32,543 nt of DNA from the IMG/VR virus record IMGVR_UViG_2706794593_000002; one strand, written 5' to 3'. Below, piece after piece: positions 12,601 through 32,543 of the stretch. The notes beneath the pieces were generated by a model. The model was not told where the DNA came from, did not search any database, and saw only the letters and a list, made by a program, of their open reading frames with translations. A program made the translations under genes and the position numbers. The first letter of the stretch is position 1. The number at the start of each line of letters is the position of its first letter. The stretch is from an uncultured virus (IMG/VR IMGVR_UViG_2706794593_000002) (taxonomy: Duplodnaviria; Heunggongvirae; Uroviricota; Caudoviricetes).

Positions 12601-12602
12601 CG

Positions 12603-13954: not shown

Positions 13955-14026
13955 CATAAACATCCGAAAGAACTATGGTGTCTACCCTAAATACTTTGAG
14001 TAAAGAATACAGTTGCTTGGCTATTT

Positions 14027-15311: not shown

Positions 15312-15834
15312 CCAGCCCCCAACAGACCAGTTCGCTTTCCTGCGCGCGGCGTTCTATCTGTCCGTAACAGTTATTTGAGCGGATATTGCAATCTTTACCG
15401 CCGTCATATACCCAGCGTTTGATTTCAGAGCATGCGCCTTTGCGGTCGCCAGCATTGAGTTTCCGGTAAAAGGTGGAAGTAAAACACTTGCCTGGGCCGA
15501 TGTTATAGGGGCAAAACGAAGCGATACCGGCAATCTGTGGTTCAGTCAGCGGTACCCGGACATTTTTATTTACCCAACTGATGGCCTTGTCAGCCTCCAA
15601 CTTATTCACCGCAGCACATTTCTCCGCTGACAGCTTCATCCCTTTCACTACCGGTTTGCCATCAACTACTGTGGCACCACGGCAAATAGTCCAAACCCCC
15701 TTCCCATCTGGATAAGCTGAAAGCAGGTTACCCTCTTTCTCATCCAAAAGCTGATCAAGAATTATTGTGGCCGGTGCTGCAACCATAACCAGAGCCAGGA
15801 CTACCGAACTTAATTTGCTTTTTGTCGAGGCCAT
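15304..15834 (-). CDS. SAR endolysin (GH24 lysozyme, phage 21 R-like)
   Basis: N-terminal weakly hydrophobic SAR segment; catalytic E-x8-D-x5-T (EGNLLSAYPDGKGVWT); FCPYNIG motif. Confidence 0.9.
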   Translation of the reverse strand: MASTKSKLSSVVLALVMVAAPATIILDQLLDEKEGNLLSAYPDGKGVWTICRGATVVDGKPVVKGMKLSAEKCAAVNKLEADKAISWVNKNVRVPLTEPQIAGIASFCPYNIGPGKCFTSTFYRKLNAGDRKGACSEIKRWVYDGGKDCNIRSNNCYGQIERRAQESELVCWGLDE

Positions 15835-16049
15835 CACTCACCATCCGGTTTATAGCCGTGGCGTCTGTCCCAAATTTTCACGCCTGCATTGAGCAAAAAT
15901 GTCAGGGCCATAAAAAACAAAGAGCCAAGTACGCCAATAACCGTCCACTCATCAGGTGTGAATCCAGCAATCAGCTCTTTAACCCAGAAAATAAAACTAC
16001 CACCCGACACGGTATAGGAGACCGCTGTTGTTATATTGCTCATTTTCAT
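15834..16049 (-). CDS. Class II holin/pinholin with dual start
   Basis: 71 aa from ATG 16049 (M-K-M-SNITTAVSY), two hydrophobic segments (P.EW..IGVLGSL...LTFL.N) like phage 21 S; GGGAGGGGGAG SD. Confidence 0.85.
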   Translation of the reverse strand: MKMSNITTAVSYTVSGGSFIFWVKELIAGFTPDEWTVIGVLGSLFFMALTFLLNAGVKIWDRRHGYKPDGE

Positions 16050-16142
16050 CGTCTCCCCCTCCCTGATGGGTTGGGTGTGAAGCAAAAAGAAAATGCGCCA
16101 CAATCACATGATAATCATACTTATTGCAGATTATTTAGGCGC

Positions 16143-16250
16143 AAAAACGACAAAACCCCGCAAAAAACGAGGTTTTCTGAATTGTGTAAGCTACGTGACT
16201 AAGTAACCACTCTTATCACAGTACCTACTTTTTTGCGTACGCGTTAATAA
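16143..16250 (-). promoter_or_regulatory. Probable late promoter pR'/qut and terminator tR'
   Basis: Minus strand AACGCGTACGCAAAAAA...TAAGAGTGGTTACTTAG resembles the block that usually follows this Q family. It is followed by the hairpin AAAACCTCG-N6-GCGGGGTTTT and T-rich sequence before the holin. Confidence 0.55.
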
Positions 16251-16323
16251 TTAAGATAGAAAAAATACTGATGCATAGGTATTCTCATATAGTTACAAAA
16301 AACTAATTGTTAAGGATGATGTA

Positions 16324-17943
16324 ATGCTTACCTCTCTTGGTGTTAAAAATCTAAGAAGTTTTACTTCACGTGCTAATTTTTTAATAAAACCTATTACTGT
16401 ATTTGTTGGTAAGAATAGTAGCGGGAAAAGTTCGTTATTACGTGTATTCCCCCTGATGAGGCAATCATTCGAAGCTAATACAACAGGTCCTATACTTTGG
16501 TATGGTCGCCTTGTCGACTTCGGTGATTTTGAGGAGGCTATTTCAAAAGGGACTAAAAATAAAAATATCTCTTTTTATTTTGGTTTAAAAATAAATGAAT
16601 ATCGCACACGCCGAACTACAAGTGGTAGATATATTGATGATGACTTCGGAATTGAAAATAAAGAAATAGAAGTCAATGTTGAGCTTGTTGTTTCTTCATT
16701 AGACAAAAAAAGCCTTACAAAAGAGATAATAATAAAGGTTGAAGATACAACTTTAAAGTTAATTTTTAACGAGGATGCAACGAAAGCTACATTTGTAGCT
16801 TCTAATACAGGATTTACATATAAAAAGAACCTTACTCTTCAACAAAATAGCACAAAATTCCTTCCTAATATAGCCAGCCTAGAGTCCTTTGATCTTGAGT
16901 ATGATGACTTAAAAAATAGTGATGACCCACTAAAGTGGGCAACTGGTAGAGGCCATTTGCAGAGCAAAGCAATCATGGGGCAGCGGAGGTTTTCACAAGA
17001 ATTAGCATCAGATGCTGCTGTAGCAATTAAAAATTATTTCCATAAAAATACTAACTTAGGAACCATTTCCCCTTCAATACGAGGTTTTAGATTTGTCAGT
17101 AAAAAAAATATAACATCTACCTTGAAGTATGTTTTTGCAGAGCAAAAACACTTCATTAATAATATGAATGATAACCAATTATCTGATGTTATTGCTGAGA
17201 CACTTCAATCAATACTTTTAATTAAAAATTATAATATCTTAGCGGACAATATTAACGAAAGTTTAAAGAATAGTTTTGAGTCAATTAAATACCTGGCTCC
17301 AATTAGAGCAAGTACGGAAAGATTTTATAGATTTCAAGATTTACAAGTAATTGAAATGGACCATACTGGTTCAAACTTAGCGATGATATTAAATTCATTC
17401 TCAAATGAAGTTAACAATAACTTTCAAGCGTGGATTAAGCAAAATTTCGGTTTTAATGTTACAATTGAAAAAGCTGGTGGTCATTATGCAATAATGATTA
17501 AAAATGAAAACGATGATACTAATCATAATATTAGTGATATGGGTTTTGGTTACTCACAAGTTTTACCTATAATATTATCTATATGGCTTGAAACGCAAAA
17601 GAATAACAAAGACAATATTGAAACAATTTTTGTTATTGAACAACCAGAATTACATCTTCATCCAGCATATCAGACTAAGCTAGCTGTATTATTTGCAAAA
17701 ATAATTGAGTTATCTAAAGAAAACTCGAGCAACATAAAAATAATATTTGAAACTCACAGTCAGCAAATGGTTGATGCATTTGGTGATTGCATTGAGAATT
17801 CGGAAATTAATTTTAATAAAGAAGATGTATCGATATTAATATTTGATAAAAAAAATGAGACTGGTACATCCATAGATGAAGCGAGCTTTGATGACCAAGG
17901 TTATTTTGAAAACTGGCCAATCGGGTTCTTTTCTGGGAAATGA
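16324..17943 (+). CDS. ABC/AAA_15-type ATPase with DUF3696-like C-terminus, putative defence component
   Basis: Walker A GKNSSGKSS, signature DMGFGYSQ, Walker B/D-loop IEQPELHLHP, H-loop ETHS, C-terminal G..NWP.GFF; strongly AT-rich. Confidence 0.85.
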   Translation: MLTSLGVKNLRSFTSRANFLIKPITVFVGKNSSGKSSLLRVFPLMRQSFEANTTGPILWYGRLVDFGDFEEAISKGTKNKNISFYFGLKINEYRTRRTTSGRYIDDDFGIENKEIEVNVELVVSSLDKKSLTKEIIIKVEDTTLKLIFNEDATKATFVASNTGFTYKKNLTLQQNSTKFLPNIASLESFDLEYDDLKNSDDPLKWATGRGHLQSKAIMGQRRFSQELASDAAVAIKNYFHKNTNLGTISPSIRGFRFVSKKNITSTLKYVFAEQKHFINNMNDNQLSDVIAETLQSILLIKNYNILADNINESLKNSFESIKYLAPIRASTERFYRFQDLQVIEMDHTGSNLAMILNSFSNEVNNNFQAWIKQNFGFNVTIEKAGGHYAIMIKNENDDTNHNISDMGFGYSQVLPIILSIWLETQKNNKDNIETIFVIEQPELHLHPAYQTKLAVLFAKIIELSKENSSNIKIIFETHSQQMVDAFGDCIENSEINFNKEDVSILIFDKKNETGTSIDEASFDDQGYFENWPIGFFSGK

Positions 17944-17946
17944 TTC

Positions 17947-19089
17947 ATGATTATTAACTTAATAAGCTCTGAAAAATGTGACATTAAAAGTGAGCCTCGT
18001 TTTTCGGCAATCATTAATATTATGACTGCTTATAAAGAGGGGAAGCATGTTATTATTTCCGAACCTGAACTACTTCAATCTATTTATAATGAAAATGATT
18101 TTGACAGAAGAATAAGAAATGCAGCAAGGCATGCGGAGACGGTACAAAAACAATATCGCAGATTAATTAATGATGTAAATACGTACATAGTTGTAGACAT
18201 TGCCAATAATAATATAAATAAAAAAACAATCAATGAAAATGGTATGGAAGTGATTTCCGTTGGCTGCAAAATTTTTTCTGATAGCGCATCAGTACAGAAA
18301 GTAAACCTACTTTGCGAAGATTTAAGTGATACTAGTTTTTATATCAAAATTGGGGAGTTTTACAGATATTTAATTAATTTAGAAACAGTAGATATTATTT
18401 TCAAACCAGTAAATGGTGGGGGTAATAATACTTACAAAAATTTTCAAAGTATTGTTTCAAATTCTGGCTTTTGTCTTTGCATGCTTGATAGCGATAAAAA
18501 ACATCCTACCGGAAAACAAGGTGGCACAGCCCTATACTTTAACGGTCAAGCAATTCCTTATAATGGTAAGTATGTGGTTATTAATGCACAGGAGGCTGAG
18601 TGTTTAATTCCTGATGAAATAATAAATCTTCTTATAATAGATAAGAAACACAAACACTATGACTATAGTTTCAGTAACAGATTAGATTACCTAAAAATAC
18701 TCTGTAAAAGCGATAGCCGTGCTAAACTTTACTTCGATCACAAAGATGGATTGATGGTCAATGATGTTAAGAAATTTGATAAGTCTGGCCAAAGTTTATT
18801 TTGGGAAACAACAATAAGTAATGCAACAATTTTGAATAGGAGTAAATGTTTACGAGACTTAGAATGTAAATGCAAAGAAACCCCTAAGAAAAATAGTCTA
18901 ATGGAATGCTATGTTAGCGAAGGGTTTGGTTCGAAGCTTCTAGAGGATTCAAACAGTAAACTTAAAGAAATGCCTAATTCCAAACTTAAATATATCCTGA
19001 CGGAACAACTCTTGCATGAATGGATGAATATTGGCAAAGACATATTCAGCTGGGGATGTGCTCCTACAAAGACAGCAAGAACTTCTTAA
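17947..19089 (+). CDS. Hypothetical protein with TOPRIM-like motifs, putative defence effector
   Basis: LLCEDLSD (catalytic E-like), NGGG, CMLDSD (DxD) and EAECL motifs; starts 3 nt after the ATPase; AT-rich. Confidence 0.65.
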   Translation: MIINLISSEKCDIKSEPRFSAIINIMTAYKEGKHVIISEPELLQSIYNENDFDRRIRNAARHAETVQKQYRRLINDVNTYIVVDIANNNINKKTINENGMEVISVGCKIFSDSASVQKVNLLCEDLSDTSFYIKIGEFYRYLINLETVDIIFKPVNGGGNNTYKNFQSIVSNSGFCLCMLDSDKKHPTGKQGGTALYFNGQAIPYNGKYVVINAQEAECLIPDEIINLLIIDKKHKHYDYSFSNRLDYLKILCKSDSRAKLYFDHKDGLMVNDVKKFDKSGQSLFWETTISNATILNRSKCLRDLECKCKETPKKNSLMECYVSEGFGSKLLEDSNSKLKEMPNSKLKYILTEQLLHEWMNIGKDIFSWGCAPTKTARTS

Positions 19090-20812: not shown

Positions 20813-22873
20813 TTATGCAGCCATCCTCCAGATACACAGCTCTGGCATATTGGCCCTTACCAATGCCTCGGCAAAGGGTGGCGGCACCGCATTGCCACAT
20901 CTTGCCACCTGTTCAGATTTGGGCCAAAGGGTGCCATCAATATCGCGGTCAATAATGTAATCCGGTGGGAACCCGCTGGCGTTGTAAAGTTCACGCGCTA
21001 TCAACATACGCATACAGATATCAACGATGATGTATTCGCCTACCGATAAAAATTGCGGCCGTGGTGCGGGGAATAAAGGCCAGTCGTCCGGTGAATCGCT
21101 GAAATGACCCACCAGCCGAGCACAGTTCCAGGCGTTATAGCGCTGCTCGTCGGTCAGAGGTTCAACATCAAAATTGTTTTCCACCAAGCCAAAACGCTCT
21201 TTAGTCGTCACCGCGTGTATTGGTTCTGAGAGATCTACTGAGCCACCGGTACCGTAATACTTGGTCAGAAAGGCGTTTATTATCCCGACATGATTACCGC
21301 CGGCGGTTAAGGTCGGTACCGGTTCAGTGATCGGTTTACCATCACGGCATGTGCCGCGCAATTGCACCAGGTGAGATGTACAAAGCGCGTGGTGATCAAC
21401 CGTGGTGATGGTGTGCAATGGCTGGTTAATATTGATGCCTGCACCGGTATAATTGCCGCCATAATGCTTGGCAAGATGAGCGCAGGTTAACTGGCTTTTA
21501 CCGCCCCCACCCGCCGTCACGGTACCCAAAGGCGTATTGATATCATTTGCCGTACTGTTACCGAACTGACGCACAACTACCGGCGCAGCGATTGCGAAAC
21601 CGTGAGTTCTGGTGATGGTCTGTAACGGATCACGTAATGACTGCCCACGGAAGCAATCATATTTGGATTTGGTGCTGGTGTGGTTGCACTTCACCGCATA
21701 CGGCTCTAGCAACAAATGCTCGGCCTTGCTGGTGATGGTGGTTAGCGGTTGGTCTAGCGGATACTGCAGGCGGTCGCCACCGAAACCGGTTTGGCCCAAC
21801 CGCACAATAAACGGATCAGGGTTATCAATAACAAAGCGTTGCAGCCCTTTGACGATGCGCCGCAAGGTATTATCAGCCAAATCTTTCTTGCGACCGAAAA
21901 TAGAGCGTGTTGGCTGGCTCCAATCGATACACTCCGCCGCCGTTCGCCAGGGTTGCAGCATGCCAGAAAGTACACTCGCTGAGTTTGGCTCGCCGTGGCT
22001 TGGCTCTGGCCATACAACCGGCTCACCGTCACAACGCCCAACCACAAACAACCGCTTCCTGATGGTAGGTGTGCCGTAATCACAGGCTTTTAGCTCCCGA
22101 TGATCCACGTTATAACCCAGCCCTGAAACCAACTTTGCCGCCTCAGGGCCATTGATATCTATCTTCAAAAACTCACACACTTCGGTCAGCGCTGGATGAT
22201 TGCCATCAATACCGGTACCCAGCATGTCAATAAATGCCTTGAACGTTTCCCCTTTACGGGCTGGATCTGGTCGGTGATTACCCTGGCTATCCGTCAATAA
22301 TGGCCCCCAGCCACGAAACTCTTCGACGTTCTCGAGCATCAGAAAACGTGGGCGCACTGCCAACGCCCAACGCAACACCACCCAGGCTAAACCACGAATT
22401 TCTTTCTTAACCGGAGTGCCGCCCTTGGCTTTGGAGAAGTGACGGCAATCAGGACTGAACCAACCCAGCAATACCGGCAAACCGCCCGTTGAGATGAGCG
22501 GGTCAACACTGAAAATATCCTCAGGGTAATGCAACGTACGTGGGTGATTGATGGCATGCATCGCCATCGCCACAGGGTTATGGTTCATCGCGATGTGTGG
22601 CTCATAGCCTAATGCTTGCTTGATGCCCTCACAGCTGCCACCGCCACCAGCGAACCCAACAACAACCAGACCATCCTGTAAATCAGGCCGCGCTACCGTG
22701 ATTTCTTTACGCCGCGCCCATGCATGGGCTGTCTGTTGGATATGCTGCGGATTATCTCGATTTAAAAACATCTGGTTCATTTGGAGCAAAAGCTGTTGCT
22801 GGTGGTCGGGACTCAAAGCATGTGCCGGTATAACCGATGAGGCACATTGATTTACTTCCGTAGGCCAGATCAT
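20813..22873 (-). CDS. DNA (cytosine-5) methyltransferase
   Basis: Motif I FAGGGG, catalytic SPDC, ENV, R.RLF and motif X GNAVPP, with a long repetitive variable region. No cognate restriction gene nearby. Confidence 0.9.
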   Translation of the reverse strand: MIWPTEVNQCASSVIPAHALSPDHQQQLLLQMNQMFLNRDNPQHIQQTAHAWARRKEITVARPDLQDGLVVVGFAGGGGSCEGIKQALGYEPHIAMNHNPVAMAMHAINHPRTLHYPEDIFSVDPLISTGGLPVLLGWFSPDCRHFSKAKGGTPVKKEIRGLAWVVLRWALAVRPRFLMLENVEEFRGWGPLLTDSQGNHRPDPARKGETFKAFIDMLGTGIDGNHPALTEVCEFLKIDINGPEAAKLVSGLGYNVDHRELKACDYGTPTIRKRLFVVGRCDGEPVVWPEPSHGEPNSASVLSGMLQPWRTAAECIDWSQPTRSIFGRKKDLADNTLRRIVKGLQRFVIDNPDPFIVRLGQTGFGGDRLQYPLDQPLTTITSKAEHLLLEPYAVKCNHTSTKSKYDCFRGQSLRDPLQTITRTHGFAIAAPVVVRQFGNSTANDINTPLGTVTAGGGGKSQLTCAHLAKHYGGNYTGAGININQPLHTITTVDHHALCTSHLVQLRGTCRDGKPITEPVPTLTAGGNHVGIINAFLTKYYGTGGSVDLSEPIHAVTTKERFGLVENNFDVEPLTDEQRYNAWNCARLVGHFSDSPDDWPLFPAPRPQFLSVGEYIIVDICMRMLIARELYNASGFPPDYIIDRDIDGTLWPKSEQVARCGNAVPPPFAEALVRANMPELCIWRMAA

Positions 22874-23370
22874 TTAGCACCCCCGCCTTTTGTTTTGGCC
22901 CTGAGTATCGAATCCACATAAAAACGCTCACTGACATTGTGCAAGGTAAATTCCGCTACCGGTTTTTCATCGCGGGTAATATCAACATGTGGCGATTTCA
23001 TCAAGCCAATCATACGCATCTGCAACATGCGCAGCGTAATGCCGTGATCCGGATAGGATTTATCAAGCGCGGCAAGAATACCGGTATAGGTCAATGTTTT
23101 ACCCAGCATCACTGCCACCAGCTCACTGGCTTTTAGCCGTAGTGCTGATGATGTGTTAGATTTTTTAGCCGCTTTAGACTTCTCTGATTTCGTTGCTGCC
23201 GATGTAGGAATTACCACCTTTTTCGGCTTGACCGGCGGCGTATAAGGCGCTCGGCATCTGGCGCGAGCCGCCATTCCCCAGGCATCAATGATGCAGGATG
23301 AATGATCACATTTGTCGTCAATCACTGGCCGATTATCATTGATAAAATTATTACAGTTATTAATTTCCAT
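22870..23370 (-). CDS. Hypothetical protein
   Basis: 166 aa; start lies within the repeated CGAGGTATGACCAATG motif; overlaps the methyltransferase start. Confidence 0.7.
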   Translation of the reverse strand: MEINNCNNFINDNRPVIDDKCDHSSCIIDAWGMAARARCRAPYTPPVKPKKVVIPTSAATKSEKSKAAKKSNTSSALRLKASELVAVMLGKTLTYTGILAALDKSYPDHGITLRMLQMRMIGLMKSPHVDITRDEKPVAEFTLHNVSERFYVDSILRAKTKGGGAK

Positions 23371-23387
23371 TGGTCATACCTCGCTCA

Positions 23388-23786
23388 CTACAGGGAATTC
23401 TTGTAATTCGTTGCTAACTTTTGCACCCGCCGACATTGGTCTAAATCAAACATGCCGATGTGGCATTGAGACATTGAAATCTCTAACTGTCCGGCCAACC
23501 ATTCATATGCTTCTGGTCGCTTCATGCCAAACTCTTGCCACAGTGGATCAAATGCGGCATGTGCCAACCGCTTCGCCGCTCGTAACTGAGCGTTAGCCAG
23601 ACGGCCAAGGGGATAAGCATCACTATTTTTGTGACAGCCCACATAGGCCCCACAAGGCGCACATGACCAAAAGAACTGTGAAGCTAAGTCTTGCCGCTGA
23701 GGGTAAATTTCATGTCCCCGCACCAGCTTCGCCCCTTTGCCGCAGTAATCGCAAAAGACCGCTCGGTTGATATTGATCGTTTCCAC
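23388..23786 (-). CDS. Zinc-finger protein (DUF3268 family)
   Basis: CDYCG, C.PC.AYVGCH...PLG.LA, AH..FDPLW and CHIGMFD motifs. Confidence 0.85.
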   Translation of the reverse strand: METININRAVFCDYCGKGAKLVRGHEIYPQRQDLASQFFWSCAPCGAYVGCHKNSDAYPLGRLANAQLRAAKRLAHAAFDPLWQEFGMKRPEAYEWLAGQLEISMSQCHIGMFDLDQCRRVQKLATNYKNSL

Positions 23787-23789
23787 TTT

Positions 23790-24737
23790 TTAATCTCCGC
23801 TATAGGGCTGTTCACCACTTTCGGTGTAAGCCTGTTTGAGATAACCCCGCCAGGCGTTATGAGCTATCGTTTCGTTTTTCATACGTAAATTGGCATTTTG
23901 GGCTTGTTTCAATGCCCTGCGTTCGGCTGAGTTTTTTGGCTCATTACCCTTGAGTACCAGCCGCCGGAATGCGCCTTCAAAATCAATATTCAAATGCCCT
24001 GCATGGGACTGGCTGGCTTTCGGCTCAAACAATCCCTGCCACTCATTGGCAATGCTTTGAGCAATGACCACCGCTGGTGCATGGCCGTTTTCCTTGAATA
24101 TCGCCAGCTGATTGATTGCGCCCATTGCCCCCTGTTTGGTTTTAATTGGTTTTTTTAAATCACAACGAAATTGAACCCACTCTTCCCACAACTCAGTCGG
24201 TAACCATTCCGGCAGTTCGATATTTAACGGATCAAATGTCTTACCTTCCCTTTTCCCCTTGGGGGGTACAGGGGGGTTTTCTTTTAGTTCTTTCTCTTCC
24301 TCTAACTCTTCCTCTGGTAACGCTTTTTTATCCGGTGGTGTAACGCCGCCAGCGTTACCTTTGTTGTTACCTTTTGATTTCGAATCTCTGAATTCTGTAA
24401 CGCGCCGACTGGTAACTGCCCGTTTTTTAGAGCCTTTTCCGTTATGGCGTTCAAAATGTGGGAAATACATTTTTGTGCCATCATGTTTTAACCATCCAAC
24501 GGCAAGCAGTGCGTCAGCGAAGCCCGACATAAAAGTGATACGGTCAATGCCAATTCGGGTAACGCTAACGGCGTTACAATCTGCGTTACCGTCGATGGTC
24601 TGCTGATCAGCCCAGACCCAAACACGGATTAACTTCCCGAGTACGGTATCTGGGTCAACATTTAGGATTTCAGCCAGTTGGAAGATCTCCGGTTTATCTG
24701 GAGTAATCACTTCGACTTTTATCCAACTTGATGCCAT
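23790..24737 (-). CDS. Phage replication initiator (O-like)
   Basis: WIK......DKPEI..LA..L, L..VGWL and F..HNG...KKRA N-domain; LPEWL...W..W...R....K and SI.N.WQGLF C-domain; internal iterons. Confidence 0.8.
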   Translation of the reverse strand: MASSWIKVEVITPDKPEIFQLAEILNVDPDTVLGKLIRVWVWADQQTIDGNADCNAVSVTRIGIDRITFMSGFADALLAVGWLKHDGTKMYFPHFERHNGKGSKKRAVTSRRVTEFRDSKSKGNNKGNAGGVTPPDKKALPEEELEEEKELKENPPVPPKGKREGKTFDPLNIELPEWLPTELWEEWVQFRCDLKKPIKTKQGAMGAINQLAIFKENGHAPAVVIAQSIANEWQGLFEPKASQSHAGHLNIDFEGAFRRLVLKGNEPKNSAERRALKQAQNANLRMKNETIAHNAWRGYLKQAYTESGEQPYSGD

Positions 24738-24781
24738 ACCTACCCCGATTCAGTGCTGCTCTGTAACGCTGATAACGTTAC
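24317..24781. repeat. GTAACGC/GCGTTAC iterons, probable replication origin
   Basis: GTAACGC at 24317, 24340, 24397, 24559 and 24763; GCGTTAC at 24352, 24571 and 24583; plus partial copies. Confidence 0.7.
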
Positions 24782-24938
24782 ATTTGGCGTGACTAGTATT
24801 AAATAGAGCGTTAAATGCTCTCCGTTGCCCTTGCATGGCTTCACGGGTAAATTGCCGTAAAATCACCCGCGCCATATTTGCTGTGATAGGCATATTCCCG
24901 TACCGATAACCATTGCGGTAAGTCAGTTTTTTAGCCAT
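24750..24938 (-). CDS. Small hypothetical protein
   Basis: 62-aa ORF overlapping the upstream gene and ending 12 nt before the initiator. Confidence 0.55.
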   Translation of the reverse strand: MAKKLTYRNGYRYGNMPITANMARVILRQFTREAMQGQRRAFNALFNTSHAKCNVISVTEQH

Positions 24939-25182
24939 GTGGCACCCGCCACGGCTTTTTAGCTTTAACGACTTTAGCTACCGGTTTATCCCGCATCCGC
25001 TTATAGGGTTTGGCATAGGTCTTAGCCCAAGCCAATGCACTGGCAAATGTAGAGTTCGGCGTATCGGTGTAATGCTTACCGCCTTGAATAGCCGCCGATC
25101 TGGCGACTGTCTCGCTAAAACCGACACGTTGCAGTTCATCTCGTAATTGTTGCTCGACTTGTTCTCTGGAAAATCTGGCCAT
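24931..25182 (-). CDS. Hypothetical protein
   Basis: 83 aa; start lies within the repeated 16-nt motif. Confidence 0.7.
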   Translation of the reverse strand: MARFSREQVEQQLRDELQRVGFSETVARSAAIQGGKHYTDTPNSTFASALAWAKTYAKPYKRMRDKPVAKVVKAKKPWRVPHG

Positions 25183-25195
25183 TGGTCATACCTCG

Positions 25196-25636
25196 TTATG
25201 CAATCAACTGCTGTGTCACCGGAATAAGTGCATGTATTGCCTCAGTTGCTTTAATTAATTTCTGTGACATATCAGAGCAGCCCAACAACACCGCACTCAT
25301 CGCCAGCGAGAAATCGCGCAATGCTTGTGCCGCCAAATAATTCACTGAATTGGGGTTTTCCAATCTGGCACGCCGCTCTCCTGGCAATGCCTGAAGTATG
25401 GCTGGAGTAAGTTCGGCGATTTTTGCTCTGGCCTTGTCAGTGTCACTATCAACCCAGCGGAACAAGCGCTGTTTGTTGTTGTGGGTGGCGTGTTCATCCT
25501 CAATGGGCGTGAGTGGAAGCTCATCACCACCGAGATCGAAATAAGCCTGTGCTACTTCTGCCGCGACAATTTCTTGTTTGGTTTCTGCTGCCCAGCTCCG
25601 CAATTCTGCGCAGATGGCATCATGTTTTAATTTCAC
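25196..25636 (-). CDS. CII-like regulator (YdaT family)
   Basis: H..I...L..WA....Q..VA, N.Q..FRW...D and L.PAI..ALP motifs; GTG start with AAGGAGG SD; follows cro. Confidence 0.8.
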   Translation of the reverse strand: MKLKHDAICAELRSWAAETKQEIVAAEVAQAYFDLGGDELPLTPIEDEHATHNNKQRLFRWVDSDTDKARAKIAELTPAILQALPGERRARLENPNSVNYLAAQALRDFSLAMSAVLLGCSDMSQKLIKATEAIHALIPVTQQLIA

Positions 25637-25654
25637 AGTGACCTCCTTATGAAA

Positions 25655-25674
25655 GCTGATTTTTAAAAATCAGC
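25655..25674. promoter_or_regulatory. Perfect 20-bp palindrome, putative operator
   Basis: GCTGATTTTTAAAAATCAGC between cro and cII; the core recurs at 30461-30477. Confidence 0.6.
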
Positions 25675-25676
25675 GT

Positions 25677-25874
25677 TTACTGTGCTGGTGCTATAGGCTT
25701 GTCATAGTCAATAGGGTCGTAATGCAATTCGCCATTAGAGGCTTTCTCTAATCGAACGGCCCTTTTCTCTGGGACTAAATCACCCCAAGCAGAAACCGAT
25801 GGCGGCTTAACCCCCGCAGCTTTTGCCAGAGCACTCTTGGTGCCGAAATATTGAATGGCATCTTTTTTTAACAC
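25677..25874 (-). CDS. dicC: Cro-like regulator, DicC homologue
   Basis: MLK.DA..YFG.K..LA.AAG....S...WGDLVPE.RA.RL..AS.GEL.YDP aligns with Qin DicC. Confidence 0.85.
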   Translation of the reverse strand: MLKKDAIQYFGTKSALAKAAGVKPPSVSAWGDLVPEKRAVRLEKASNGELHYDPIDYDKPIAPAQ

Positions 25875-25905
25875 GTCGCCTCTCCTGTTGTTAGATTTAG
25901 TTAAA

Positions 25906-25934
25906 AAGTTATTTGTTCAGGAAATTTAAGTCAA
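25906..25934 (-). promoter_or_regulatory. pR-like promoter for the cro operon
   Basis: Minus strand TTGACT-17-TAACTT, flanked by imperfect TTAG...CTAA operator-like sites. Confidence 0.65.
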
Positions 25935-25956
25935 GAGAATTTAGAATTACCTAACT

Positions 25957-26349
25957 ATGAAAAATCCCGGTGAACGCATCAGAGAGCGGCGAAATGAGCT
26001 GCAACTAACCCAACGCAGCCTTGCAAAGGCGGTGAAAGTGTCCCATGTCACCATTTCACAATGGGAAAGCAACGACAGTTCACCTTCTGGCAAAAATCTA
26101 TTTGCCCTGAGTACCGCATTACAGTGCTCACCAACGTGGATTTTATACGGGGATACAGATCAATCCCCCCCACCCGCAGTAAAGATCCCACCTGAACTTG
26201 ATGAGAGAGAAGCTGAACTAATTCAATTGTTTGCGTCTCTTCCTGAATCAGAAAAAGAGCGGCACTTAACAGACCTTCGGCTTAAAGTTGATGAGTTAAA
26301 CCGACTTTTTGAAGAGCTGTTACAAACCAGAAAAAAACTCGCCAAATAA
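25957..26349 (+). CDS. dicA: Prophage repressor, DicA homologue (HTH_3, no peptidase domain)
   Basis: GERIR.RR..L..TQRSLAKA.K.SHV..SQWE..DS.P.GKNLFALS..LQCSPTWIL.GD...LPESE...FEELL matches Qin DicA; divergent from cro. Confidence 0.88.
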   Translation: MKNPGERIRERRNELQLTQRSLAKAVKVSHVTISQWESNDSSPSGKNLFALSTALQCSPTWILYGDTDQSPPPAVKIPPELDEREAELIQLFASLPESEKERHLTDLRLKVDELNRLFEELLQTRKKLAK

Positions 26350-26416
26350 ATATTCATACTTTTCAAATTCTTACCGCTAATTTCGCCCTTATTGTTAAGT
26401 TTATTTAAATTTACGA

Positions 26417-26445
26417 TTGAATTTATTGTTAGTTTAAATTAACTT
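26417..26445 (+). promoter_or_regulatory. pL-like early promoter
   Basis: TTGAAT-17-TAACTT (same -10 as the pR-like promoter), overlapping the imperfect palindrome GTTAGTTTAAATTAAC. Confidence 0.6.
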
Positions 26446-26521
26446 TAGCCCATCAACGGCACAACAGCCGCTTAGGTAAGCAAGTTCTGACAATCTGAAA
26501 GCAGATAAAAAGGGATAGACA

Positions 26522-26740
26522 ATGGGAAAGCTATTGGATGACCACAGTAAATATGTTGCACAAGCTAAAGCCAAGGGGGTGAATTTCATCACTCTTCGCT
26601 GCCCAATATGTAATAAAGAAATTGAAACACGCAGAGGAATAGATAACGCAGTTTGGGATTCACTAGCGACTTGCCCTCATTGCGAATCGATTTATCTAAA
26701 AATTACTGATGGTGGGAAAGCAACTGCCGAGATAATTTAA
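26522..26740 (+). CDS. Small zinc-ribbon protein
   Basis: CPIC...CPHC pairs, AAGGGA SD; first ORF after the pL-like promoter. Confidence 0.6.
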   Translation: MGKLLDDHSKYVAQAKAKGVNFITLRCPICNKEIETRRGIDNAVWDSLATCPHCESIYLKITDGGKATAEII

Positions 26741-26761
26741 CCCTTAATATTCAGGAAATTT

Positions 26762-26935
26762 ATGGAGCAACTATTATTCGCTTTAGTTGTATCGGTATGC
26801 CCTGCTCATGAAATTTGTAGAGATATTGTCTATGAAGTTTATGACACCCAACAAGAATGTGAAAAAGTCATTTTCGAAAATAGGTTATTCAACGGCAACT
26901 GCTACCCAGTCGATGCCATTATTCATCAACAATAA
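26762..26935 (+). CDS. DUF1482 (YdfD-like) small protein
   Basis: Not in the ORF track. Translates as MEQLLFALVVSVCPAHEICRDIVYEVYDTQQECEKVIFENRLFNGNCYPVDAIIHQQ; T.QEC and GNCYPVD..IHQ match Qin YdfD; AGGA SD. Confidence 0.8.
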   Translation: MEQLLFALVVSVCPAHEICRDIVYEVYDTQQECEKVIFENRLFNGNCYPVDAIIHQQ

Positions 26936-26948
26936 CGAGGTATGACCA

Positions 26949-27281
26949 ATGAAATTTAAAGAAATTAAATTATCTATTAAACCACTTCATAATGACGTTG
27001 CTCAGTTATCCGCAGAAAATGAAGTAATCGGCTATGCCGTTAAAAATAAAGAGGCTAATTTACCGCTGGCTTCTATTGTTTTGCCTAGTGGTGAAACTTT
27101 AGGGGATTATCACTGTATGGGCTGTGCAATTAAAGCCGCCGCTCAGCATTATATTGGTATTGGCGAAGATGAAGTCATTGAGGCCAATTTCAGCTTCGGT
27201 AATAACAACGTCCGTGACTTATTATTAGCTGCTTTGTTATCAAGTGTTGTTGATGATTTAACCACTCAATCCAGACATTAA
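26949..27281 (+). CDS. Hypothetical protein
   Basis: 110 aa with an HCxxC motif; start lies within the repeated 16-nt motif. Confidence 0.7.
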   Translation: MKFKEIKLSIKPLHNDVAQLSAENEVIGYAVKNKEANLPLASIVLPSGETLGDYHCMGCAIKAAAQHYIGIGEDEVIEANFSFGNNNVRDLLLAALLSSVVDDLTTQSRH

Positions 27282-27376
27282 TAATTGCAGCCAACACCAG
27301 TGAAACGGTCGTAAAACTCAGCTCATTAAAGTGGATATATCGACGCCGAAAACGTAACCGGCATTAAAACAGACGT

Positions 27377-27488
27377 AAAAAAGCCCACACAAGGTGGGCA
27401 ATCTTACCGGCTTAACGTCCCGGTGACGGCAGAGTCAGCGACCAAACCGACTCTAGCGAGGTATGACCAATGGCTTCCACCACTGGAC
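27377..27488 (-). ncRNA. Predicted antisense sRNA carrying the complement of the repeated start motif
   Basis: Minus-strand promoter TTGTCT(27524-27519)-18-TATAAT(27500-27495); internal hairpin AGAGTCGG-N8-CTGACTCT; terminator GCCCAC-N5-GTGGGC-TTTTTT (27399-27377). Confidence 0.6.
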
Positions 27489-27784
27489 GCCGAAATTATA
27501 GCGAGATCTCTATGCAAAAGACAACACTTAGAATCCTGGCTGATTCTATCGTCATCGCTAATGCTGCTAAATCCCCCGCATTAGTCGAAGTTGGAGCGAG
27601 TCCAGACGCAATAATGGGCACTGTTTCAGATCTAATAGAATCCGGCATTGTAGATGTACGTGATTTAATTTCTCTGGCTTTAGAAAAAATTAAAAAATGT
27701 GACTCTACGTCGTTAGTTCATGTATTACCCACAGATGAATTAATAGCACTGACCGATTGTTATTATCAGATTAAAAATAATTAG
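27470..27784 (+). CDS. Hypothetical protein
   Basis: 104 aa; start lies within the repeated motif (alternative ATG at 27512). Confidence 0.6.
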   Translation: MASTTGRRNYSEISMQKTTLRILADSIVIANAAKSPALVEVGASPDAIMGTVSDLIESGIVDVRDLISLALEKIKKCDSTSLVHVLPTDELIALTDCYYQIKNN

Positions 27785-27797
27785 CGAGGAATGACCA

Positions 27798-29951
27798 ATG
27801 AGCTTATTTGTATGTGGGTTTCTACCCAAAAAATCAGCTATGGCAAATGGTGCTGCAGCCATGGCGATTACTGTTGATGCCAAAAATCAAAAAATGGCAA
27901 CAATGAAATCCACCATGTTATTAGAAGGGGAATTCCCCGGATCAAGTAGTAATTTCTTTGCCCCTAAAGTTTGTGCTGATCGTGTGGGTTCCCCTCGCCC
28001 TCCGGTACATGATGATGCTGAAGATAATGCCATATTCAGCACTGAATGGATGGAACATAATCAATGGAATGATGAAACTAAAGAATTTGAACCTATCGTC
28101 GTTGATAATACTGATGAAATTGACAATGTTAAAAACATCTTCGATTTACCAATTAACGTAAGAATTGCATATGTTTTATTATATGGCGTAGAGCCTGAAA
28201 TTGTTGATAGCCATCTATTATCTAATGCATACGATTTAATTAATGATGATGAATCAGAGTCGTTATATCGTGCAGTTATTGATGGCTTGCCACGCTTACC
28301 ACAAGTTAAGCACATGTACATCACTACATTGGCACAACTCATTGATGATGTTCAGGCCCACACTCCGGTATTTAAATCATGGCCGGACGTTAACAAGTTT
28401 GCTGAAAAGTGGATCAACTCCCGTCCAGATGAGCGGGAACACCCTGGCCATCAAGCGAATGAACAAGCCAATTCATCGCCTACGCCAGCGGGTCATCGTG
28501 AACGCGATTATAAGCATGATTACGCCTCTCTCGATCTTGAAGTCGCCTGCGCCCTGTTCCCCAGTGATTATGATGTTTGGGAAGTGCCATCATCCATTTA
28601 TCGTGGCGCTAAAGAAAAAGTAGAGAAAGGTGATGAGGCTTGGCGGCGCTGGTCAACAGCTTTACGGATTATCCCTGCCATTTTAGCGGTTTCCCGTGAT
28701 GATCTGTTTGCAATGATCCGCAGTGCTGAATTGGATATTCATAAAGACCCAGCCAAGCTGAAAGTCTATATCAATCAGTGTTTACAGCTTGATGTAATCA
28801 AAGCCGATGATGTGAAAGTAGCAAACCTTGGCGATGGCAAATTTAGTGTTGATGGCTTGACCAGCGCAGCCAACGATTCACCGGCGAATACCAGCACAAT
28901 CGAAAAACCAAAAACTGATACAAAAGTGCCAAAAGGTGCAACAGAACAGCCCAATCATGTATCAAACATTGCAAATAGCGCCATTAATGATGAAACGGCG
29001 ACCATTAACGCCGAGACCCATACCAATAAGCAGATAGAACCTGAATCACCGCATCCTACCGCAGATGAGTTCCAACAGCGGGCATCACAGATCGATCAGG
29101 ATATATCTAAGTTACCCAAAGAGTCTCAGGATAATTTAAGTATCTGGAAATCAGTACAGCGCACCGATCCCGCGCGTACCAAGCGCAAAGATACGACCAA
29201 AAATGGCAAAGTCATTCGCTCTGTGACCAGCATCAATCCTACCTATCAGACAATGAGAGCCACGGAAATCTTTGGCCCCTTTGGTAGCGGCTGGGGCGTG
29301 GATATTATCAGTGAGGAATTTATACCCGGCATCCCATTTATGGAGTCGATTCTGGATAGCAACAATCGAGAGATCGGGCGTAAACCCATGCGTGATGGGG
29401 ATGGCACCATTCTACGGACCTCCAACCACACTATGCGGATTGAACTGTGGTACCAATACGCAGGAGGTCGGGGCCGCTTCCCTGCTTTTGGTCATACCAA
29501 ACATATTTATCAGAGTACAAATGGTTTCATTTGTGACGATGAAGTCAGCAAAAAAAGCCTAACGGACGCCACGACCAAAGCATTAGCACAGCTTGGTTTC
29601 AGCGCTGATGTATTTATGGGGCTGTTTGATGATGCTGAATACACCGCCGACAATAATATTGAGTTTGGTATTAAAAATGCCAGCACTAAAGCTGATGATG
29701 TGGTTCGTCTGCGTAAAGAGTTAGACGACAAATTCAAAGCCAATACCGAGACGATGAAAACAGCAGTCACGGCGAATGAAGTGACAAAAATCAGCACCTC
29801 ACTAACACGCACCATCGGGGTTCATCTCAAAAATGCCGAATCATCCCATGATGATGAGCACGTCAAATATCTGACCGGACGCCTAACCCGTTTGAATCAA
29901 ATCAAAGATGAGTGCTTGGCAAAATTTGTCACTGAGGGAGAAAAAGCATGA
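27798..29951 (+). CDS. Recombination protein: RecE-like N-terminal region fused to a Rad52/Sak-like annealing domain
   Basis: LD.E.A.AL.P.D......P......AK......W..WS..L....IL..SR block is typical of exonuclease VIII N-regions. C-terminal TSI.P.Y...RATE.FGP.G.GWG and KKS.TDA..KA...LGF.ADVF.G.FDD are typical of Rad52/Sak-like proteins. Confidence 0.7.
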   Translation: MSLFVCGFLPKKSAMANGAAAMAITVDAKNQKMATMKSTMLLEGEFPGSSSNFFAPKVCADRVGSPRPPVHDDAEDNAIFSTEWMEHNQWNDETKEFEPIVVDNTDEIDNVKNIFDLPINVRIAYVLLYGVEPEIVDSHLLSNAYDLINDDESESLYRAVIDGLPRLPQVKHMYITTLAQLIDDVQAHTPVFKSWPDVNKFAEKWINSRPDEREHPGHQANEQANSSPTPAGHRERDYKHDYASLDLEVACALFPSDYDVWEVPSSIYRGAKEKVEKGDEAWRRWSTALRIIPAILAVSRDDLFAMIRSAELDIHKDPAKLKVYINQCLQLDVIKADDVKVANLGDGKFSVDGLTSAANDSPANTSTIEKPKTDTKVPKGATEQPNHVSNIANSAINDETATINAETHTNKQIEPESPHPTADEFQQRASQIDQDISKLPKESQDNLSIWKSVQRTDPARTKRKDTTKNGKVIRSVTSINPTYQTMRATEIFGPFGSGWGVDIISEEFIPGIPFMESILDSNNREIGRKPMRDGDGTILRTSNHTMRIELWYQYAGGRGRFPAFGHTKHIYQSTNGFICDDEVSKKSLTDATTKALAQLGFSADVFMGLFDDAEYTADNNIEFGIKNASTKADDVVRLRKELDDKFKANTETMKTAVTANEVTKISTSLTRTIGVHLKNAESSHDDEHVKYLTGRLTRLNQIKDECLAKFVTEGEKA

Positions 29952-30460
29952 GCACAAGCGCCATATCATTAGCCACTGATTACCGCAAATTGCAGGAAAT
30001 GGCCGATAGCGGTGATGAACTCACCCCCGAAATGGTCGCTGACACTCTCTCTGGCATTGAGGGCATGCTGGAAGATAAGTTCGATGCCTTGATGGCACTG
30101 GTACGTAACACGCTGGGTCAGGCAGAAATATGTGCCAACGAAGCCAAACGGATGAGTGCACGCAAGAAAAGTTTTGATAATCAGGCTGAAATCTACCGTA
30201 AATATATATTGGAATGCATGATTCAGGCCGGTAAAGACTCGATCAAAACGGCGTCCAATACCTTCACTGCCCGAAAAGGGACAAAAAAACTCGTCATCAC
30301 CGATGTGAATTTGTTGCCTGATGAATATGTCGACTCCGTTTCTCAGGTGCAAATTATCACCACCCCAAAAGCCGATGAAATCAAAGCTGCCTTAAATGAG
30401 GGCCTATTGATTGCCGGTGCCAAGTTTGAAACTGGCGAACGTTCGTTAGCCGTCCGCTAA
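29948..30460 (+). CDS. Siphovirus Gp157 family protein
   Basis: DTL..IEG..E.K, E.KR...RK, LPDEY and IK.AL..G..I.GA......L..R motifs. Confidence 0.85.
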   Translation: MSTSAISLATDYRKLQEMADSGDELTPEMVADTLSGIEGMLEDKFDALMALVRNTLGQAEICANEAKRMSARKKSFDNQAEIYRKYILECMIQAGKDSIKTASNTFTARKGTKKLVITDVNLLPDEYVDSVSQVQIITTPKADEIKAALNEGLLIAGAKFETGERSLAVR

Positions 30461-30532
30461 CTGATTTTTAAAAATCAAAACTGAACCGGTCAGCACGTTA
30501 CTATGCTGGCCGGTCATATCGAGGTATGACCA

Positions 30533-30799
30533 ATGGCTAAATTAATGACATTAACCGAATGGTGTGATGAAACGTATACGACTGACAAGCCGACGATTCA
30601 AACACTCCAACGCTGGGCCAGAAACGGTAACTTTTACCCTGCAGCAGAAAAACACGGCAGACAATATCGCGTGCGGCCCGGTGCCATTTATATACAGCCC
30701 AAAAGCTACAGAATGGCGAAAGCGCTGAACATTTCACATTCTACGATACCGCCAATATTGGAGAAGATGGGTTATGGCAAAAAGGCCGGGAAAGTATGA
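30533..30799 (+). CDS. xis: Excisionase
   Basis: L.TL.EW....Y...P...TL.RWAR.G..YP...K.GR.YRV...A.YI; overlaps the integrase start. Confidence 0.88.
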   Translation: MAKLMTLTEWCDETYTTDKPTIQTLQRWARNGNFYPAAEKHGRQYRVRPGAIYIQPKSYRMAKALNISHSTIPPILEKMGYGKKAGKV

Positions 30800-31856
30800 C
30801 GCTAATTTGCCCAAAAACCTCACCTTTAGGCGTGTTCAACTAACTTTCTATTGGCGCAACCCGCTAACTGGAAAGGAGTTATCTCTCGGCAAAATTGCCC
30901 GGCGAGACGCCATATCCCAAGCCATTGAAGCCAATAATTTCATTGAACAAAACTACACTCCTGTCGCACTACTAGAAAAGCTCAAAGGCACGCAGGAGTT
31001 CACACTGGCAGCATGGCTAAAACGATATGACGTCATCTATAAGCGCCGGGAATTGGCCGAAAACACCTATAAAGTTCGCAAGGGACAAATAGCCATGATC
31101 AGCGAAAAAATGGGCAACAGGGTGTTAGCTAAAATCAGCACGCGCCATATTGCCGAGTTTTTAGAGTTTTGGGTGGCACAGGACAAAAAAACTATGGCCG
31201 CTACTATGCGGTCAGTGTTGTCTGATATTTTCCGAGAAGCGATTGTCGAGGGCCATATAGATAATAATCCAGTGACACCGACACGCTCAGCTAAACCGGT
31301 GGTGAAACGTGAGCGCCTGGAACTGGATCAGTATCTCGCTATTCGTGAGGTCGCTGTCACATTACCGGCGTGGTTTGGGCTATCAATGGATCTGGCGCTA
31401 GTCACTGGCCAACGACGTGAGGATTTATCTCTGATGCGCTTTGACCAGATTGTTGATGGCAGATTACAGATAGACCAAGGCAAAACCGGAGCCATGATCT
31501 CCCTGCCCTTAGATCTTGAACTTAAAGCCGTTGGCCTACGCCTTAGCACCGTGATTGAACAATGTAGATTAGCCAGTAAAACAGATTTCATGATAAGTGC
31601 TGGCATCAGAAAAAATAGCCCTGATGGATCACTACATCCAGACAGCCTGACAAAGAAATTCGTAACGGCGAGAAAAGGAACAGATTTTCGTTTTGATGAG
31701 AGCCCACCAACTTTTCACGAGATCAGAAGTCTCGCTGGGCGATTGTATGAAAAGGAAAAAGGTAAAGAATTTGCGATGAAACTGCTGGGGCATAAATCGG
31801 AGAAGATGACGAACAAGTATCTGGATACGAGGGGTAAAGAATACGTAATGCTATAA
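30774..31856 (+). CDS. int: Lambda-family tyrosine integrase
   Basis: N-terminal arm-binding domain (LP.NL...Y.RNP.TGK...LG), TGQRREDL, KTG, FHEIRSL, LLGH and catalytic Y. Confidence 0.95.
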   Translation: MAKRPGKYDANLPKNLTFRRVQLTFYWRNPLTGKELSLGKIARRDAISQAIEANNFIEQNYTPVALLEKLKGTQEFTLAAWLKRYDVIYKRRELAENTYKVRKGQIAMISEKMGNRVLAKISTRHIAEFLEFWVAQDKKTMAATMRSVLSDIFREAIVEGHIDNNPVTPTRSAKPVVKRERLELDQYLAIREVAVTLPAWFGLSMDLALVTGQRREDLSLMRFDQIVDGRLQIDQGKTGAMISLPLDLELKAVGLRLSTVIEQCRLASKTDFMISAGIRKNSPDGSLHPDSLTKKFVTARKGTDFRFDESPPTFHEIRSLAGRLYEKEKGKEFAMKLLGHKSEKMTNKYLDTRGKEYVML

Positions 31857-31872: not shown

Positions 31873-31970
31873 TTTCGATAAAATTTCGATAAATTTCGAT
31901 AAACAACAAAATTCACCTTTTAAAATCAACAACTTAAAAAGAGACCGAATACGATTCCTATATTCGGTCT
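31873..31970. other. Prophage attachment region: arm-type repeats, IHF site and probable core in the SdsR terminator
   Basis: TTTCGATAAA three times (31873, 31884, 31894); IHF consensus AATCAACAACTTA (31924-31936) abutting the sRNA terminator. The second att copy is outside the window. Confidence 0.7.
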
Positions 31971-32039
31971 AGGGAAATGGCTCTTGGGAGAGAGCCGTGC
32001 GCTAAAAGTTGGCATTAACGTAGGCTTATTCAGCCGTAC
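31936..32039 (-). ncRNA. sdsR: SdsR (RyeB) small RNA
   Basis: Minus strand TTAATGCCAACTTTTAGCGCACGGCTCTCTCCCAAGAGCCATTTCCC...GACCGAATA..GGAATCGTATTCGGTCTCTTTTT matches enterobacterial SdsR. SigmaS-type CTACGCT -10 at 32052-32046; next to yebY. Confidence 0.9.
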
Positions 32040-32201
32040 TTCTTAAGCGTAGTCGAGTACATGTGTTTAGCCAACTTGACAGTAGAAGTAATTAATTGCG
32101 GTTGTAAATTAATTTTGGTGATAAAAGCGCAACCTCAAGGCAACAAAAGTAATTATTTGTTAATTATAGGTTAATGCCCGTAGGCACCAAGAGAGCCAAG
32201 C

Positions 32202-32543
32202 TTACTGCTGACATAATGTCATGGCGCGCTGCTGGAAGGGTTCTAAACTCATCTTGAGACCCGGGTTTGCATTGTCATCCAGTAGCAAAACATCTAGCGG
32301 TTTGGCCAATACATGCCCGGACTTCATCTGTTCGGTCGCTATCTCGTTTAGGGGATATTGCGCTAACGTACTCGGGTTAATCACAAACAAAGCATTACCG
32401 GTACGGCATTCTAGCATCACCTCTTCCCGGTTAAATGCCCACTGCTTACCAAACTCAAACTTACTGACAGTGATGATCTTCCCGGCAGCCATAGCATTAG
32501 CTGATAGCATCAGTAACGTTAACGTCAGCACAAAACCCTTCAT
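32202..32543 (-). CDS. yebY: YebY family protein (host gene)
   Basis: Signal peptide, then [33 protein letters not shown]; canonical neighbour of sdsR. Confidence 0.9.

Follow-up and report, generated by a model that had tools for sequence, protein, structure and literature searches.

A 16-nt box at the starts of six early prophage genes, the probable target of a conserved phage-encoded antisense RNA

The start-associated sequences (SAS) of Cluster K mycobacteriophages are short repeats at gene starts, and the excerpt of the describing paper considered here leaves their function open (PMC3203893). A similar element, the 16-nt box CGAGGTATGACCAATG, opens six early genes of a prophage lying in a stretch of 32,543 nt from an uncultured virus of the Caudoviricetes (IMG/VR record IMGVR_UViG_2706794593_000002; this whole stretch is referred to as the window). 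The original prediction, made from the letters of the window, had pointed out this repeat and named the SAS as a loose analogue, which is apt as a resemblance but not as membership. Both are asymmetric repeats with a ribosome-binding core, occurring in one orientation at the starts of many unrelated non-structural genes and being absent from the host genome, with the SAS conserved across subclusters. In contrast, the SAS consensus GGGATAGGAGCCC differs in sequence from the box, belongs to another host phylum, is present in 11–19 instead of six copies and stops 3–8 bp short of the start codon, whereas the box ends in ATG. About half of the SAS copies carry a 17-bp inverted repeat upstream (designated ESAS), while in the flanks of the six box copies the sole invariant base beyond the 16 nt is an A two bases upstream. 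Moreover, the same excerpt reports no antisense RNA for SAS, whereas the box is matched by an antisense RNA gene (PMC3203893). A second likeness had been proposed to the boundary sequences of lambdoid phages, i.e., short conserved sequences at gene borders regarded as possible recombination foci (Clark et al., 2001, on HK620, as cited in the excerpt of PMC3029335). This was not borne out, as homology breaks among 21 close relatives are not enriched at the box, and the matching antisense RNA sets the box apart from those sequences.

Antisense RNAs of temperate phages are the other group of related systems. As partly outlined in PMC12197685, the c4 RNA of P1 and P7 resembles the RNA predicted here in that it pairs around a ribosome-binding site and blocks translation, with few base differences in the pairing stretch setting the heteroimmunity of related phages. 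However, c4 controls one operon (ant), whereas the predicted RNA would address six dispersed start sites on both early operons. Likewise, sar of P22, OOP and aQ of lambda and STnc6030 of BTP1 tune the lysis-lysogeny decision or exclude superinfecting relatives, each having one overlapping or adjacent target and no repeated start-site operator, and such an operator is not found with any of the RNAs treated in the excerpt of this 2025 review of phage small RNAs (among them sar, OOP, aQ, c4, sas, STnc6030, and DicF). Hence, phage antisense RNAs are already known, with one target each in this source (PMC12197685), whereas here one RNA appears to own a six-gene regulon. A literature search returned no description of the box or the RNA, and six forms of box and anti-box gave no match in the papers searched. 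The CI RNA of satellite phage P4, which is an immunity factor, is complementary to more than one repeat in its own early transcripts and in this respect is like the predicted RNA. Unlike a control at six start codons, however, it acts by premature transcription termination in one leader.

In the window, five exact copies of the box and a sixth with a single mismatch (T6>A) are present, precisely where they had been predicted, and the motif scan reveals no further copy at up to three mismatches. By chance, 0.26 matches are expected from shuffled sequences, and none of 100 shuffles reached six. Each of the six copies is closed by the ATG of an open reading frame (ORF) of 83–717 aa, and four begin 0–4 nt past the stop codon of the preceding ORF, in line with the original prediction. 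The box-bearing starts, 6 of the 46 ORF starts listed, all lie within 22870–30799 among the early genes; the claim that late genes lack the box also holds, with none at the 25 ORFs of 1163–19089, and the remaining early and late genes of the window show varied, ordinary ribosome-binding sites. In the whole 4,000,307-base genome, no other copy exists at up to one mismatch, the reversed-pattern control likewise giving zero.

Among the six copies, the one at 27457–27472 (+; exact) stands out by far for the conservation of its flanks. On the opposite strand, a small RNA gene is predicted here, inside the leftward early operon and antisense to this copy. The RNA of about 112 nt would extend from 27488 to 27377 (–), with its nt 17–32 being the exact complement of the box (anti-box). 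Upstream, a sigma-70-like promoter is predicted at 27524–27495 (–), consisting of a –35 element TTGTCT (27524–27519), an 18-nt spacer and a –10 element TATAAT (27500–27495) with 10 of 12 consensus matches. The gene would end with an intrinsic terminator at 27399–27377 (–), GCCCAC-CTTGT-GTGGGC followed by six T, which is the only terminator-like site of a 1.7-kb scan; the ORF list contains no other minus-strand gene upstream which it could serve. In an alignment of 31 sequences, composed of the window, seven other genomes and IMG/VR entries, a block of about 150 nt from the –35 element to the T-run is conserved with sharp borders, while its flanks diverge completely (31 distinct sequences). In each of the 31 sequences, the –10 element is either TATAAT or TATACT; T, A, T, A and the final T never vary. 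In the terminator hairpin, a compensatory A-U/G-C change is found in 4 of 23 sequences, and the T-run in all 23. Rfam gives no match at 27377–27488 even at E values up to 1, the C4 antisense RNA family included. On the plus strand, this box copy heads a leader or ORF at 27470–27784 (MASTTG..., no PHROGs assignment), and the MASTTG leader peptide is conserved because its codons coincide with the RNA 5' end and the –10 element on the opposite strand. In the window, the leader is fused in frame to a downstream ORF (MQKTT...), whereas in relatives it comprises 12–14 codons and is immediately followed by a second, separate ribosome-binding site with its ATG; it is this ATG that the –35 element of the small RNA promoter overlaps.

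Folding of the aligned sequences with RNAalifold results in four elements, stem-loops SL1, SL2 and SL3 and the terminator hairpin, with a single-stranded stretch between SL1 and SL2. The CAUUGGUC half of the anti-box is contained in SL1 (nt 1–24), while nt 25–32, AUACCUCG, are single-stranded 3' of SL1. Another UUGGUC is found in the loop of SL2, GGUUUGGUCGCU; including this one, the RNA exposes the sequence a second and a third time in hairpin loops. The terminator hairpin has a U6 tail. In the minus-strand RNA, 677 of 688 cells at paired positions can pair (98.4%, including 89 G.U), compared to 592 of 688 (86.0%) on the mirrored plus strand, the lower number being due to the 89 G.U cells. 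Accordingly, the fold is better on the minus strand. Compensatory changes occur in 10 of 30 base pairs, a value not reached in any of 500 shuffles (mean 3.8), and slid controls gave 0–2 such pairs. The minimum free energy of the single sequence is –46.8 kcal/mol (z –3.28).

The RNA gene and the boxes occur together. At up to one mismatch, the box matches in 24 of 401 genomes of the family, and clusters of 5–10 copies within about 10 kb are present in eight of them, carrying six genus labels (G000, G203, G033, G366, G200, G123, G133, and G335); the other genomes have single matches, as frequent as those of the reversed control. A covariance model built from 23 sequences scores 141 bits at the window locus and finds one match each, with 97–143 bits, in 8 of 8 early-region loci. 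Within a 151-genome sample of the family, matches of 120–143 bits were obtained only in G000, G033, G123, and G133, which are the four genomes of this sample having box clusters. In 14 other genomes, only weak matches of 23–31 bits appeared; the eight inspected are generic terminator-plus-hairpin structures lacking the seed, i.e., the anti-box, and were therefore treated as false positives. In IMG/VR, 119 stretches with the exact 16-mer were found on 42 contigs (166 instances), and 36 of these contigs have a model match of at least 96 bits. The remaining six carry one box each and are incomplete records (CheckV 1–76%).

By genome records, several copies were found in Yersinia frederiksenii, Serratia sp. 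PL17, S. fonticola, Rahnella perminowiae and R. rivi as well as in Erwinia sp. OLFS4, Izhakiella australiensis and Mixta mediterraneensis, whereas Rahnella sp. PCH160 and Rouxiella aceris have one locus each of 3.6–4.0 kb, far exceeding the length of a single-copy locus. Single copies in unrelated metagenome-assembled genomes are at chance level in 596 Gb by our own arithmetic.

For the six targets, pairing was scored as contiguous complementarity, as scripted RNA duplex energies gave implausible structures with huge loops and were set aside. Over the 46 ORF starts, the RNA is complementary to the start of the cis copy along at least 49 nt. In trans, 19 nt are reached at the excisionase gene xis (PHROGs; 30533–30799), headed by the exact copy at 30520–30535 (+), and also at the exact copy 23368–23383 (–), which heads ORF 22870–23370 (phrog_4183, function not assigned), an ORF overlapping the start of the DNA methyltransferase gene 20813–22873. 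At the exact copy 25180–25195 (–), 18 nt are complementary; it directly follows the stop codon of the CII-like gene 25196–25636 and heads ORF 24931–25182 (phrog_4439), upstream of the overlapping ORF 24750–24938 and the O-like replication gene 23790–24737. The exact copy at 26936–26951 (+), directly behind the stop codon of ORF 26762–26935, heads ORF 26949–27281 (phrog_2434) and has 16 complementary nt. Finally, the T6>A copy at 27785–27800 (+) belongs to the gene for a 717-aa exonuclease (27798–29951, phrog_2489), the end of which overlaps the start of the Gam-like gene 29948–30460; here, 15 of 16 positions are complementary, in stretches of 10 and 5 nt. The other 40 ORF starts do not exceed 9 nt of contiguous complementarity. 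The earlier statement that xis and the recombinase are among the genes with a box thus holds for xis, while the recombinase in question is the exonuclease/annealing-type gene and not the integrase, which has an ordinary start of its own.

Directly upstream of the xis box, at 30485–30519, there is a 10-bp inverted repeat (ACCGGTCAGC ... GCTGGCCGGT) with compensatory changes among relatives. Its 3' end together with the next bases reads GGTCATA and could pair with TATGACC of the box, leaving the ribosome-binding site looped, which makes it a possible cis switch mimicking the RNA seed.

The variable positions 6 and 8 of the box face nt 27 and 25 of the RNA, i.e., the single-stranded stretch after SL1, and this allows a comparison between lineages. 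A megablast search of the early region against isolated phages gave no close relative; relatives were found via protein search and the RNA region. By its exonuclease protein (37% identity), the closest isolated phage is Pectobacterium phage ZF40, whose genome paper mentions ZF40-like prophages in Yersinia (PMC3391216). Its available text contains none of the terms "ribosome binding," "Shine-Dalgarno," "motif" and "intergenic" and does not mention the box or the RNA (PMC3391216). Nevertheless, ZF40 possesses a box of the CA class, CGAGGCAAGACCAATG with near variants, at gp13, gp05, gp07, gp18, gp16, and gp03, and the 12-mer core occurs eight times at up to one mismatch, in each case within record positions 1810–10888. 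Upstream of its exonuclease gene, a homologous RNA unit is found on the opposite strand, with a –10 element TATAAT, the seed UAUUGGUCUUGCCUUG, a further UUUGGUC and a U6 terminator. With the trans boxes, this seed forms 14 Watson-Crick and 2 G.U pairs, while the plus-strand cis copy lacks the ATG and is no longer a start site.

In a degenerate IMG/VR scan covering at least 174 loci, the matches listed comprise at least 69 instances of the AA class, at least 57 of TT, at least 25 of AT, at least 13 of CA and at least 9 of CT. The AA and CT lineages own RNA genes with the seeds CAUUGGUCUUUCCUCG and CAUUGGUCAUGCCUCG and the –10 elements TATACT and TAGAAT, respectively. When five whole proviruses were scanned with GAGGNANGACCA, which leaves both variable positions free (N), the variant of each of the 31 boxes matched the seed of the same record (CT 6/6 and 6/6; AA 7/7, 6/6, and 6/6), and the reversed control gave zero matches. 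Phages BUCT708/709 belong to the AA class and have five boxes at up to two mismatches, and Aeromonas phage pAEv1818 has four (GGAGCATAACCAATG, at up to two mismatches), one of them ending in the annotated xis start codon. In both cases, the RNA unit is located upstream of and antisense to the exonuclease gene. The seed of pAEv1818, CAUUGGUUAUGCUCC, is more divergent, its –10 element is TACAAT, and its hairpin loop has changed from UUGGUC to UGGUU where the box has AACCA. Hence, in at least five lineages the RNA has changed along with the box; these are represented by prophages of Yersinia, Serratia, Rahnella, Rouxiella, Erwinia, Izhakiella, and Mixta and by phages ZF40, BUCT708/709, and pAEv1818. 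Besides, in AA and CA lineages and in no others (e.g., L300, L305, L351, and L363; ZF40) a small hairpin with the loop CUGACCA and a stem of GCGC/GCGC or ACGG/CCGT is placed 8–14 nt upstream of many boxes. By its complementarity, CUGACCA matches the UUGGUC loops of the predicted RNA, so that a first loop-loop contact is possible.

The box persists while the genes around it change. At orthologous slots (xis, exonuclease, the gene after cII and the gene before the methylase gene), it is kept next to strongly diverged coding sequence, as illustrated by the exonuclease N-termini MSLFVCGF, MALYICGF and MTQFICAL beside an unchanged box. The xis slot bears the respective lineage's own box in ZF40, BUCT708, and pAEv1818, and the slot after cII is also boxed in the relatives L241, L242, L244, L245, and L247 and in gp13 of ZF40. 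Among the IMG/VR instances, 22 upstream and 23 downstream protein families are joined by the box in 31 combinations, with four families on each side having more than one partner family on the other. The scan of prophage, host, and relatives thus found the motif conserved in related phages, with no other copy in the host, and it persists where adjacent genes are swapped.

Taken together, the box probably serves a phage-encoded small RNA as its common target, and a conserved and previously undescribed antisense RNA, with its regulon marked by the box, is the best explanation. The comparative evidence for this, i.e., boxes, gene signals, conservation, covariation, complementarity, co-occurrence, and matched variants, is strong, and we infer from it that the RNA is made, pairs in trans and represses, and when it acts. 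The shared post-transcriptional operator of the original prediction has thereby gained a partner in a conserved antisense small RNA gene with an exact anti-box and lineage-matched seeds, while the regulation itself is predicted. In the proposed mechanism, the single-stranded AUACCUCG would nucleate on the ribosome-binding half of the box, CGAGGUAU, and pairing would then open SL1 and cover GACCAAUG including the start codon. Exclusion of the 30S subunit would result in a translation block. In this way, six genes might be repressed together, namely xis, the exonuclease gene, the gene following cII, the one that precedes the methylase gene and two small leftward genes, and Gam would be repressed along with the exonuclease via coupling. 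Since targets overlap the start of the next gene (exonuclease/Gam, 22870/methylase, and 24931/24750, the latter just upstream of the O-like gene), the effect could reach further. Specificity would be set by box positions 6 and 8 and RNA nt 27 and 25, as these differ together between lineages. In the lysogen, the likely role of the RNA would be to keep leaky early messages of excision, recombination, and replication-linked genes silent, and incoming phages of the same box class might be affected as well.

Several observations weigh against this explanation. Expression data were considered from four RNA sequencing runs, two raw-read runs among them not carrying the prophage. In the two oligo-dT contig sets (8–11 million letters), no contig covers 27374–27507, while cI reaches depths of 176 and 46.7 and the leftward genes 2–5. 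As such libraries are tiny and, by their oligo-dT priming, poor at catching a 110-nt RNA, this gap proves little, yet it gives no support either. Moreover, the seed, encoded opposite one box copy, is complementary to it in any case, and the match between seed and boxes is therefore not fully independent; whatever force kept a phage's boxes alike, the same pattern would result. The degenerate cis copy of ZF40 and the extension of pairing to 18–19 nt argue weakly for pairing in this respect. In the Yersinia-type lineage, the exonuclease box keeps the A6 mismatch within the proposed nucleation stretch (at least 25 AT copies in IMG/VR), the variant recurring at this gene in L241, L242, and L243, and the seed of L245 differs by one base (C.C) from the four exact boxes of that prophage. 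The box is limited to 6 of about 21 early ORFs. Finally, nothing in these results points to chaperone binding or to the direction of regulation.

Among the other explanations, the one surviving best, though rather unlikely, is that the box is read by a protein or, as a standard start cassette, by the ribosome, with the antisense RNA regulating only its cis target, i.e., the leader and exonuclease operon. It would suit the extent of the box, which spans ribosome-binding site, spacer, and ATG and heads 23 unrelated downstream families, and in some relatives the box opens mini-ORFs of 6–14 codons terminating at the real gene's start or next to it, a coupling that fits a portable start cassette. 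Besides, the seed/box match is automatic when the cis copy belongs to the box family, and for the SAS the excerpt considered here leaves open whether the factor is RNA or protein (PMC3203893). However, no candidate protein emerges, as the small early proteins give only DUF or zinc-ribbon matches. The cis copy of ZF40 has lost its ATG and nevertheless its RNA still pairs with the trans boxes via G.U, complementarity exceeds the 16-mer in three trans targets, and in the Aeromonas phage the RNA hairpin loop follows the AACCA of the box, all of which speaks against this reading.

More doubtful still, and improbable in our view, is a recombination linker, the box providing homology at gene starts for cassette swaps and gene conversion keeping the copies identical. 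This would extend the microhomology for gene shuffling suggested at the outset, and it is appealing in view of the reassorting flanks (22 x 23 families in 31 combinations), tandem partial copies in L242 and L247, and the phage's own exonuclease/annealing-type protein and NinB. However, of 1283 alignment endpoints in the 21 close relatives, 2.8% are within 20 nt of a box compared to 2.2% expected, leaving the suggestion weak. Flanks do reassort in more distant relatives, but the same would be expected at any gene border. A linker also leaves unexplained the constant inclusion of the start codon, the copy inside a promoter-terminator unit with covariation, and boxes which are uniform within a phage yet differ at two positions between lineages. 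In the tandem arrangements mentioned (L242, 10938–10979; L247, 2036–2077), two boxes lie 10 nt apart upstream of a 128-aa ORF, the first having lost its ATG (…AATC), and either remain from an unequal exchange or form a double target.

A strong ribosome-binding site simply inherited by descent, with a spacer of no special function, is very improbable: GAGG with an 8-nt spacer does make a good start site and G is common after ATG, but the box remains identical where the adjacent coding sequence diverges and recurs at unrelated gene starts, while other genes of the same phage use varied sites and the host genome has no other copy. Hardly credible is an extended pairing of the spacer with the 16S rRNA 3' end past the anti-Shine-Dalgarno stretch, for which parts of the spacer (GA, CCAA) could pair further 5' with small bulges (judged by eye), as it explains neither the variable box positions nor the conserved first C, the Aeromonas variant alters the supposed pairing bases, and the 16S bases in question presumably sit in the last helix of this rRNA. 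Two further candidates were dropped, a hairpin inside the box (GGU-AUG-ACC), which is not kept in the ZF40 variant, and a CsrA-type site, as by eye the main box variant lacks the GGA that we take to be part of the CsrA motif.

If the box is indeed the target of the small RNA, a simple and testable rule would follow for how translation of excision and recombination genes is coordinated. Immunity groups could then have an RNA basis, synthetic biology would gain a natural set of orthogonal RNA/start-site pairs, and a concrete hypothesis would be at hand for other start-associated phage repeats. A more far-reaching and only tentative idea is that of an RNA-based, immunity-like system of ZF40-like temperate phages, in which a constitutive RNA would silence, through the identical box, the phage's own regulon as well as that of incoming relatives, with TT, CA, AA, CT, and Aeromonas classes, set by two variable bases of the seed, being mutually blind. 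Such classes could be likened to the repressor/operator specificities that define immunity groups. By analogy, the mycobacteriophage SAS might also be RNA targets.

The boxes are embedded in a lambda-like prophage. Its cI-like gene at 25957–26349 (+) is followed on the plus strand by the leftward early operon, which ends with xis and int, while the minus strand encodes cro-like, CII-like, O-like, methylase, NinB, and Q-like genes, with lysis and structural genes further left. The exonuclease looks like a fusion protein, with residues 3–377 resembling RecE/exodeoxyribonuclease VIII-type proteins of E. coli phages and residues 390–676 resembling proteins of Pseudomonas and Vibrio phages annotated as annealing or Rad52-like; a Pfam scan of the 717-aa sequence gave no match. 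Between cI and the first leftward gene, a 57-nt stretch (26452–26508) has contig depths of 1057 and 581 and is hit by 23 and 41 raw reads. The RNA reads, however, sit in contigs with other flanks. This stretch holds GTTCTGACA...GAAAG, a sequence that relatives and ZF40 likewise have ahead of the first box of their leftward operon. It may represent a leader or nut-like element that is shared, with its expression coming from other prophages.

At the other end of the operon, the integrase gene (30774–31856) abuts the SraC/RyeA-SdsR/RyeB locus at 31932–32077, which gave the only Rfam matches in the window (171 and 109 bits) and is followed by a DUF2511/YebY-like ORF (32202–32543, –). Therefore, the prophage seems to be inserted at this bidirectional small RNA locus, which in enterobacteria is known as a hot spot of insertion. 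A two-gene cassette of low GC content (29–36%) is found at 16324–19089, where it separates the Q-like gene from the lysis genes. Its second gene (380 aa) belongs to no Pfam or PADLOC family, and the first encodes a 539-aa AAA_15/AAA_21 ATPase matching the PADLOC models NsnB, PDC-M55A, HEC-03B, and AriA; the cassette looks like a defence-type moron.

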